From Octopus vulgaris (taxonomy: Eukaryota): DNA of 64,000 nucleotides. Location of the stretch: positions 10,478,001 through 10,542,000 of the forward strand of contig OX597830.1 of the NCBI GenBank assembly GCA_951406725.2, read 5' to 3'. Both the position numbers and the translations under genes were made by a program. How positions within the stretch are numbered: position 1 is the first letter of the stretch; each line of letters begins with the position of its first letter. A model generated the notes under the pieces. That model was not told the DNA's origin. It saw only the letters and a program-made list of their open reading frames with translations, and did not search any database. Shown here piece by piece: positions 33,305-55,070 of this stretch.

Positions 33305-33875
33305 CTTTTCTACTCAGGGCACAAGCCCGAAATTTTTTAGGGAGTGGGGCCAGTCGATTAGATTGACTCCAATATGCAACAGGTACTTAATTTATCAACC
33401 CCGAAAGGATGAACGGCAAAGTCGACCTCGGCGGAATTTGAACTCAGAACATAGCAGCAGGCAAAATACCTATTTCTTTACTACCCACAAGGGGCTACAC
33501 ACAGAGGAGACAAACAAAGGCAGGCAAACGGATTAAGTCGATTACATCGACCCCAGTGCGTAACTGGTACTTATTTAATCGACCCCGAAAGGATGAAAGA
33601 CAAAGTCGACCTTGGCGGAATTTGAACTCAGAACGTGGCGGCAGGCGAAATACCCGTTTCTTTACTACCCACAAGGGGCTACACACACAGAGGACAAACA
33701 AGGACAAAGGGATTAAGTCGATTATATCGACCCCAGTGCGTAACTAGTACTTATTTAATCAACCCCGAAAGGATGAAAGGCAAAGTCGACCTCGGCGGAA
33801 TTTGAACTCAGAACGTAACGGCAGACGAAATACGGCTACGCATTTCGCCCGGCGTGCTAACGATTCTGCCAGCTC
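33305..33875 (-). mobile_element. SINE family B trimer (one head, three core units)
   Basis: Three ~180-bp units joined at cgaaatacc/ctatttctttactaccc. Confidence 0.88.
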
Positions 33876-36319: not shown

Positions 36320-37118
36320 CTACTATAGACACAAGGCCTGACATTTTGGGGGACGGAACTAATCGATTATATCGACCACAGTACTCAACTGGTACTTATT
36401 TCAGTGACCCCGAAAAGATGAATGGCAAAGTCGACCTCGGCAGATTTCGAACTCAGAAAGAAAAGACGGACGAAATGCAGCTAAACATTTTGCCCGGCGT
36501 GTTAACGCCTCGGCCAACCTGCGACCTTAGCAACGACAATAATTATGGTTTTTACTATAGGCACACGGCCTGAAGTTTGTTTGGGAAAAGGATAGTCGAT
36601 TACGTCGACCCCAGTACTTAACTGGTACTTAATTTAGCAATCCCCTAAGTATATAAAGGCAAAGTCGAGCAAGGCGGAATTTGAACTTAGAACGAAAAGA
36701 CGAACGAAATAACTATTTCTTTACTACCCACAAGGGGCTAAACACAGAGGGGAAATACAAGGACAGACAAACGGATTAAAACGATTACATCGACCCCAGT
36801 GCGTAACTGGTACTTATTTTATCGACCCCGAAAGGATGAAAAACGAAGTCGACCTCGATGATATTTGAACTCAGAACATAAAGACGGACGAAATGCCAAT
36901 TTCAAGGGGCTAAACACAGAGGGGAAAAACAAGGACAGACAAACGGATTAAGTCGATTACATCGACCCCAGTGCGTAACAGGTACTTATTTAATCGACCC
37001 CGAAAGGATGAAAGGCAAAGTCGACATCGGCAGAATTTGAACTCGGAACGTAGCGGCAGACAAAATACCGCTAGGCATGTTGTCCGGTGTGTTAACGATT
37101 CTGTCAGCTTACTGCCTT
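36320..37118 (-). mobile_element. SINE family B array (four core units)
   Basis: Repeated core and tail blocks. Confidence 0.85.
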
Positions 37119-53010: not shown

Positions 53011-53595
53011 TTTAAGCTTACGTCGATTCCACTGTGGTGTTGTTTTGCATTTATTGCAAAATAAATGTATACAAACAAAAATAATAATAATAATAAATTA
53101 TACAGTAGAGTACTGTTTCTATTTAGCGGACTATCGCGGTGGTGATTAGAACGTAACACCAGCGATAATCGAGGGATTACAGTATATCAAGCAGTGTATA
53201 TGGGAGCATGTGCTTGAAAATTCCGAGTGTGGCAGGCAGCCAGACATACAGGCAAAGACAGTTGTGTGGTTAAGAAGTGAGCTTTGCCAGCGCAAGATAC
53301 CAAGTTCGATCCCACTGCACCCGGCAGATGGCGTACTTGTCTTTTATATTAGTCTTGTGCCAACCACTAGCTCGGGCGTGGAATCTGGTAGACAGAAACC
53401 GAAGGAAAAACCCATTACAAACATCATGAATAATCGTTCTGACCTGTTCCAGTCATCGGACTGCGATTATGCTGAGGCACCGCTTAGGATGGCTTAGTCC
53501 AACAAATTAGGCTCTATCGATCTTTTGTTGAAACGCTACTTTACAAGGACGTAATAAAACCAATCAGTGGTGGTGGACATATATATATATATATT

Positions 53596-53663
53596 TCAGA
53601 TACATCGATAATGATAGATAGATAATATGTTATCTATCTATCTATCATTATCGATGTATCTGA
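53596..53663. repeat. Hairpin between (TA)n tracts
   Basis: tcagatacatcgataatgatagatagata is mirrored exactly. Confidence 0.9.
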
Positions 53664-53860
53664 TATATATATATATATAAAAGTACAAAGTGAGATAGGG
53701 GTTATGAGTGTAACCCTCTATGGGATATCATTTATCCAATATACTGTTGGTAAAGTACCCAGAAGGCTAATACATAAATGCTAAGAATTGCAATGCAATT
53801 CGTTTATTGTATTATATGGGCGAAGGTAAAATGTTTTACCTCAAATTCATAATACAAAAT

Positions 53861-53987
53861 AAGAAAATGGAGGAATTTCTTTCAATCATCAACTTCCAGA
53901 TAATACCAATTAATTAGTTAATAAATTATATGAATTGGTATTATCCGGAAGTTGATGATTGAAAGAAATCTATTCCTCCATTTTCTT
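53861..53987. repeat. ~50-bp inverted repeat ending in (TA)n
   Basis: 53861-53911 mirrors 53933-53987 with a small indel. Confidence 0.9.
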
Positions 53988-53993
53988 TTTTTG

Positions 53994-54026
<33 letters not shown>

Positions 54027-54159
54027 TGAGGGTGTCTGAGAGACACCAACATGCCGAAATAGCAGTCGAAATTCTGACTATAAAAACCACGTTAAGTGTT
54101 CACATCGTACCATGAGATAAGACAGAGGGACAAAATATACAAGCAAAAGTTATTGAATA

Positions 54160-54218
54160 ATTCAAGATCCAGGATTTCTGGTTTTGCTTTAAATAAGCTT
54201 TACCGTCATCAATTGAAT
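54160..54218 (-). ncRNA. Type-I hammerhead, U3 core variant
   Basis: Reverse complement of 54737-54795. Confidence 0.7.
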
Positions 54219-54736
54219 ATATCAAGGGTACATAAATACAGGTATATATATCCAGAACAAACGATATACTTACATATACGAACGTCCATACACATATACA
54301 TATGTACGTATGCACACGGCCAGTTAAATTGCCCGCCAAAACACCCCATAAGCACGATGTGGTTAAAATAAACACCGCAGTGAATATAACAAATTATATA
54401 AATTTATATATGAGGATAATATCGATATTTAAGTATCAATATTATCAAGTGGCCAGCATGGAAGAAATACCGTACAAAGGTAATAATTTTTAACAATTAA
54501 AAATGAGGGTGTCTGAGAGACACCAACATGCCGAAATAGCAGACAAAATTCTGACTATAAAAACCACGTTAAGTGTTCACATCGTATTTTAACCACATCG
54601 TGCTTATGGGGTGTTTTGGCGGGCAATTTAACTGGCCGTGTGCATACGTACATATGTATATGTGTATGGACGTTCGTATATGTAAGTATATCGTTTGTTC
54701 TGGATATATATATCTGTATTTATGTACCCTTGATAT

Positions 54737-54795
54737 ATTCAATTGATGACGGTAAAGCTTATTTAAAGCAAAACCAGAAATCCTGGATCTTGAAT
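54737..54795 (+). ncRNA. Type-I hammerhead, U3 core variant
   Basis: AUUCAA-UUGAUGA-cGGU..GCUU..AAGC..ACCa-GAAA-UCCuGG-AUC-UUGAAU. 6-bp perfect stem I, near-palindromic stem III, AUC at 54787-54789. Confidence 0.7.
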
Positions 54796-55020
54796 TATTC
54801 AATAACTTTTGCTTGTATATTTTGTCCCTCTGTCTTATCTCATGGTACGATGTGAACACTTAACGTGGTTTTTATAGTCAGAATTTCGACTGCTATTTCG
54901 GCATGTTGGTGTCTCTCAGACACCCTCATTTTTAATTGTTAAAAATTATTACCTTTGTACGGTATTTCTTCCATGCTGGCCACTTGATAATATTGATACT
55001 TAAATATCGATATTATCCTC

Positions 55021-55070
<50 letters not shown>

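Follow-up and report, generated by a model that had tools for sequence, protein, structure and literature searches.

A young 477-bp hammerhead-bearing element of Octopus vulgaris ends at two fixed sites, probably through PLE-type priming from both DNA ends

In the window, a stretch of 64,000 nucleotides of Octopus vulgaris DNA, a 477-bp unit forms a partial tandem that is joined head to head to an inverted arm. The locus belongs to a young dispersed family in which every classifiable two-armed insertion starts at one fixed site (A) on one arm and at another fixed site (B) on the other. With a probability of roughly 0.65, the whole is explained by a non-autonomous PLE of the non-LTR retrozyme type, inserted through target-primed reverse transcription that began at each of the two DNA ends. 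Mobilisation by a PLE is, taken separately, very likely.

The unit (54021–54497) restarts and runs on to 54586 with two differences (54543 and 54545), and then meets an inverted arm (54585–55037) in which unit positions 350 to 1 are followed by positions 477 to 375. The tandem plus inverted-copy structure described in an earlier note on this DNA was thus borne out, as were the near-identity of the arms (they mismatch once within 54585–55030, at 54242 versus 54713, and once more at the TA end), the UUGAUGA-core hammerhead-like motif in each arm, and the (TA)n on both sides. The features of the locus, whose left end is B and whose right end is A, are as follows.

53994–54020: left (TA)n target, detected by TRF and common to the neighbouring element
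54019–54586, − strand: arm B, 568 nt or 1.19 units, running inward from fixed terminus B (about 54019–54021); the hammerhead RNA sense is the − strand
54031–54047, − strand: 7-bp hairpin, upstream of start site B in the RNA sense, with a single two-sided change relative to the sister family
54160–54218, − strand: type I minimal hammerhead-like motif with a UUGAUGA core, cut predicted after 54166 (sequence and covariation)
54395–54497, − strand: internal copy of the ~100-nt tail, i.e., the segment between terminus A and terminus B
54498–54586, − strand: unit read for a second time, with single-copy changes at 54543 and 54545
54585–54586: TA microhomology of 2 nt, where the two truncated inner ends are joined head to head
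54585–55037, + strand: arm A, 453 nt, running inward from fixed terminus A (about 55030–55037, blending into TA); the RNA sense is the + strand
54737–54795, + strand: hammerhead-like motif (sequence and covariation); stem I 54737–42/54790–95, core 54743–49, stem II 54751–75, GAAA 54777–80, near-palindromic stem III, AUC ending at 54789 with C17 at 54789
54935–55037, + strand: tail, present only on arm A, including a 13-bp hairpin (54986–55017) upstream of start site A
55021–55065: right (TA)n target, detected by TRF

The double-stranded RNA hairpin proposed in the earlier note is matched by a predicted fold of the two arms with a ~350-bp stem at −705 kcal/mol, an energy without a shuffle control at such length. 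The unit has a GC content of 33%, the longest stop-free frame of the doubled unit is 97 codons, and tblastn with PLE protein gave no match anywhere in the window. The focal unit is non-coding and lacks the RT and GIY-YIG ORF required of an autonomous EN+ PLE. Two consecutive complete hammerheads in the same orientation, named as the mark of an "active" retrozyme in passages of a recent preprint (bioRxiv 10.64898/2026.07.22.740005), are absent at the focal locus, which has one per arm. Across the family, just 9 of 175 arms span two whole hammerheads; the focal arms are not among them, so the focal locus is probably a dead-end product.

Several other repeats were seen near the element. An unrelated second two-armed PLE-like insertion at 53680–53992 has the left TA tract in common with the focal element, and its two termini lie about 180 nt apart; its family gave 45 matches of ~93% identity among the 40 scored of 3497 candidates, and its hammerhead has a canonical CUGAUGA core, with stem II ~100 nt long and stem III palindromic. 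The near-perfect 45-bp inverted repeat between TA tracts at 53580–53679 is possibly a very short two-armed insertion. Mutually related tandem repeats with a period of 172–184 lie at 33352–33833 and 36731–37049, and we take them to be a common cephalopod repeat. Other canonical-looking hammerhead motifs occur in unrelated repeats flanking family loci (L186, + strand near 1997; L226; L270).

The genome searched comprised 2.8 Gb in 227 contigs. The unit search gave 132 matches among the 40 scored of 2490 candidate regions; 145 unit loci were gathered, of which 114 distinct loci remained after overlapping retrievals and segmental duplicates had been dropped. Matches below 82% identity, a stray match in L023 and a distant match in L071 were left out, and TA-rich positions were masked in the divergence counts. 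It should be noted that the first 30 loci are biased towards arms one unit long or longer and that pattern-derived loci need an intact hammerhead stretch only. Two sets of loci (L005–L007; L207, L209 and L210) were triplicated with matching flanks, as segmental duplications on C11 and C29. The 114 loci agree with the earlier description of a young, dispersed, non-autonomous hammerhead element of the retrozyme or pLTR type in (TA)n, and the unit is dispersed rather than single-copy. Five subfamilies of similar age (28, 26, 20, 14 and 5 loci) were distinguished, each 1.2–1.5% from its own consensus and 2.7–11.8% apart.

For the mapping of the ends, the unit was re-phased so that v1 corresponds to 54395. 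The outer ends then lie at v1 (A) or at v95–108 (B; 54 at v101), about 100 nt apart. Two arms, always with outward termini, were present at 70 of the 114 distinct loci. All 63 classifiable two-armed loci were A+B, with no AA and no BB (chance 1e-19 at p = 0.5), and the remaining seven had one degraded end. The 44 single-armed loci start at B (24), at A (18) or at neither (2). Nearly all of the 114 loci lie in (TA)n, with (TA)3 within 12 nt of 164 of 176 termini, and target-site duplications are undefinable within such tracts. A hairpin lies immediately upstream of each start site and retains one two-sided change relative to the sister family. Two termini ~100 nt apart are the "tail" signature of PLEs. 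The free circular permutation suggested in the earlier note was contradicted by the outer ends, which sit at two fixed sites instead. Fixed termini together with missing cleavage activity had been listed there as a refuting outcome; the first half, fixed termini, was indeed found, but it does not refute a retro origin and indicates PLE machinery.

An error of assembly, or the DNA-level rearrangement of a satellite, is extremely unlikely as the source of this anatomy. No contig spans the compared stretch 53700–54497 (with the TA junction left out), which speaks for it, but the same anatomy recurs at 70 loci with unique flanks and the A–(TA)n junction appears as loose ends in the independent runs X2, X15 and X16. 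Misassembly, already considered in the earlier note, is unlikely because so many distinct loci are two-armed with outward termini.

The A+B pairing was also found in other families. In an older sister family, 74% identical to the unit, all eight outward pairs among 30 loci were A+B, with a query that contained A and with one BB call dropped as an internal-site artefact. This sister family (L082:391–809, L176–L205) has a canonical CUGAUGA core, the same A/B ends and 3960 first-look candidates. A young autonomous PLE (L037, L239–L258) has many intact 781-aa ORFs with a CxxC motif in the linker and a period of 4810 bp in L249; its GIY-YIG domain scored above the Pfam cut-off and its RT below it (E 1e-5), and its CxxC motif is Neptune-like. 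Its two ends lie 38 nt apart, giving a 38-nt tail, and its targets are (TA)n. Both ends were present at 6 of 20 wide loci, all of them A+B. A single end was seen at the rest, B at 12 and A at 2; A arms shorter than about 64 nt would escape detection. A minimal hammerhead-like motif with a UUGAUAA core lies about 65 nt before the short end of this PLE. In a third family, adjoining the focal element, 15 of 30 loci had an inverted B start, and one doubtful locus had an inverted A start.

The three PLE families examined have no sequence in common with the unit beyond low-complexity DNA; this search for an autonomous partner covered 30 GIY-YIG loci, 20 wide loci of the main autonomous family and 22 loci of two older PLE families, 150 of 6136 GIY-YIG candidates genome-wide having been scored. 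The 22 loci of the older families contained one incidental neighbouring copy of the sister family. PLE fragments beside L028 and L120 were rejected as partners, being nested or incidental.

The inner ends of the arms bear on how the inverted repeat arises. Of 59 simple junctions, 32 show an overlap of 0–4 nt. The inner ends are uncorrelated, as 6 of 59 offsets fall within 20 nt against a shuffled mean of 6.0, and their median is 108 nt versus 118 nt in the shuffles. Neither arm nests in the other at 30 of the 63 two-armed loci, the focal locus included, so the template is longer than one pass, as the earlier note had held. The argument given there, that the inverted arm carries the variant of the first copy, is uninformative on the template because that state is the family consensus (T in 114 of 115 and G in 99 of 118 locus-alleles); the restart copy merely has two single-copy changes, one of them at a CpG.

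Fold-back, either as self-priming on an antisense template (proposed in passages of PMC3846280) or as snap-back of the cDNA, could explain some near-palindromic junctions (those 6 within 20 nt), the 33 of 63 loci at which one arm could nest in the other, and the rare shared variants, which are mostly A>G on the antisense strand. Self-priming is rejected because the inner arm ends are uncorrelated, with offsets like those of shuffles; the 30 non-nested loci and the A>G sites without ADAR neighbour bias also stand against fold-back. It is largely refuted for the 477-bp family, and we consider it very improbable overall. An excess of stops near site B (15 versus 6.7 expected, p = 0.004 uncorrected) was not counted as a collision of cDNA and primer, because first and later passes are alike and three other bins are similarly high.

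Both arms belong to the same subfamily at 53 of 53 assignable loci, versus 27% expected, and 10 loci are ambiguous. Taken together, the non-nested arms, the shuffle-like offsets and the same-subfamily arms lead us to infer two-ended priming with one start site per end, which is probable. Arm identity alone is no proof of a single molecule, since the arm-to-arm divergence of 1.19% (108/9103) is not below that of the nearest other loci (median 0.96%; Wilcoxon p = 0.37). This equality is what would be seen if two separate RNAs of one active source were used, with an asymmetric protein complex, and not a common template, imposing one A and one B. Same-subfamily arms could likewise derive from two RNAs of a single expressed source, and the 781-aa autonomous family is asymmetric, since at all 6 of its two-ended loci the long arm is A and the short one B. 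Against two RNAs, the five subfamilies of similar age are never mixed within one locus, and 14 private alleles are common to same-register arms. We therefore regard two RNAs as an improbable source of the paired ends.

Under two-ended priming, a GIY-YIG/RT protein borrowed from a PLE, probably as a dimer, would bind the unit RNA at the hairpins upstream of A and B and cut both strands of the TA tract. On a single template, one DNA 3' end would use A as its priming site and the other would use B. Both cDNAs would extend inward for independent distances, across the hammerhead site and the unit junction, until their inner ends were joined via microhomology into a head-to-head inverted repeat, of which just one end bears a tail. 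Failure of one side would leave a single-armed copy. The template would most likely be a monomer read repeatedly, as a ligated circle with about an even chance, or else a homogeneous linear multimer.

The choice of template was approached through the arms that pass the unit junction. Arms are longer than one unit in 57 of 175 cases, with a maximum of 2.7 units, and 141 of 142 read through the predicted hammerhead cut site, where cDNA stops showed no enrichment (one arm ends at v243–254). The unit junction is free of indel scars, 142 of 149 copies being of two types that are one loop base apart. Adjacent passes differ at 98/9261 sites and same-register arms at 108/9103 (p = 0.44). Of 6409 sites, 11 carry a subfamily-private allele that adjacent units have in common (0.06 by chance), four of these alleles being private among all the 93 loci assigned to a subfamily; only 2 of 2338 sites with three copies are register-specific. 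On the RNA strand, U>C makes up 18 of 34 shared rare variants versus 18 of 158 single-copy changes (p = 4e-7), the strand skew after composition correction being p = 0.02–0.13. ADAR editing was ruled out as the cause of this skew, as there is no neighbour bias. No parent–progeny pair was found among the mapped loci. Contigs of X1 and X2, whose RNA nature is a guess, cover parts of the unit; strand, ends, level and circularity are unreadable from them.

From the private variants common to tandem passes, we lean towards a re-read monomer or circle, and the U>C signature with the private alleles would fit errors at the RT stage that were inherited via a re-read monomer. A ligated circle stays at about even odds because GC-biased gene conversion fits too (p = 0.096). 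Such conversion belongs to another reading with the same PLE machinery, in which master tandem arrays, one or several, supply a linear multimer that serves as template without being cleaved, the hammerhead is vestigial, and the conversion happens later. The non-canonical cores of both young lineages are in its favour, as are the AT>GC direction of 19 of 25 private shared alleles, their strand skew, non-significant against single-copy changes (15:2 versus 18:10, p = 0.096), and hammerhead mutants that, in passages of PMC11167929, had no effect on insertion in vitro. On the other hand, no array was seen, clusters hold at most two same-strand exact hammerhead matches, and the longest arm is 2.7 units. 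Variants occurring in at least three sister loci are common to adjacent units at 48 sites, for which many homogeneous arrays would be needed, and compensatory changes are kept in the hammerhead stems. A linear multimer is thus rather unlikely. As a tentative elaboration of the circular template, a PLE dimer could carry out rolling-circle reverse transcription of one circular monomer RNA from both cut ends, with one subunit per hairpin-marked start; successive rounds of RNA and cDNA would leave the U>C changes, and circles might form despite the UUGA and CCGA cores via protein-assisted cleavage. On this view the genome would preserve both a general PLE rule and a retrozyme life cycle.

The hammerhead itself departs from the canonical form. 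No Rfam hammerhead family reached the gathering score in the focal element or appeared among its 21 matches to E 10. Exact hammerhead patterns gave 74 and 65 matches for two variants, and the canonical core was found only three times genome-wide; among 152 parsed cores of the young family, 74 were UUGAUGA and 71 CCGAUGA. The core thus has U3 or C4, with a C–A mismatch at the base of stem II. In the named fold, 97.6% of cells are paired, and 3 pairs show two-sided change in 13 sequences, all three reflecting one split between young and old and not independent events. Passages of PMC3088659 describe U4C as lowering activity in vitro while still permitting viroid infectivity. Self-cleavage in the young family is doubtful because of these cores, which also weakens a circle that depends on cleavage. 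The near-palindromic form of stem III hints that the ribozyme acts as a dimer, by analogy with the minimal hammerheads of PLEs, which published passages describe as cleaving poorly in vitro.

LINE-1 twin priming likewise has the two target strands priming on a single RNA, and the resulting inversion is joined by microhomology. There, the second site is random, whereas that of the 477-bp family is fixed, and a long inverted repeat results because its two cDNAs are copies of one region. The closest likeness in the passages compared is to EN-containing PLEs (Penelope/Poseidon, Neptune; PMC8557442, PMC3846280, PMC11167929): partial tandems, 5' truncation, a head-to-head inverted arm, a one-end tail, AT-rich or (TA)n targets, a hammerhead upstream of the termini and two start sites. 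Their inverted and tandem insertions likewise have the tail at one end (PMC8557442; PMC3846280). The 477-bp family differs in having no ORF, the whole element being the repeat, and in a tail of ~100 nt against 30–40 nt in published accounts, where the tail is "optional" or present "often" and not strictly one per two-armed insertion. In agreement with two-ended priming, a PLE purified from Anolis cleaves the two strands and extends each of them, has two internal start sites that define the tail, and is predicted to be dimeric (PMC11167929); the equal use of start sites on both strands reported there in vitro counts against one site per end.

Metazoan non-LTR retrozymes, as described in passages of PMC7229834 and of bioRxiv 10.64898/2026.07.22.740005, are alike in being non-coding, low in GC and built of head-to-tail units with one type I hammerhead, and dependence on PLEs has been proposed for them. 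They are quoted at 150–450 against 477–480 nt here and occur in arrays, whereas the 477-bp family mostly has 1–2 units per arm and a non-canonical core; those passages do not describe inverted arms or fixed termini. Chlamys non-autonomous PLEs such as MRC1 share multicopy head-to-tail insertions moved by a PLE, but their 3' end resembles the autonomous partner and canonical hammerheads are missing from the group, as far as the relevant part of PMC8557442 goes.

A literature search by titles and the starts of abstracts, which did not extend to Repbase or subscription papers, found no paper on the 477-bp family or on a strict one-tail rule. Tail, inverted arm, hammerhead and TA target are already known singly; what is new is the strict one-A-one-B rule, a tail of unusual length and how cleanly two-ended insertion is recorded. 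The origin of PLE inverted repeats with a one-sided tail, and the movement of animal retrozymes by PLE proteins through circles, are both stated as open questions in passages of PMC8557442, PMC11167929 and the 2026 preprint. With so short a unit, many insertions are readable in full at both ends, and "tail often at one end" becomes a strict A+B rule that is found in an autonomous PLE too. The A+B insertions of the 477-bp family count against the published fold-back model, and the unit offers a 477-nt substrate, mapped for both start sites, on which an insertion mechanism that is still poorly understood becomes testable.
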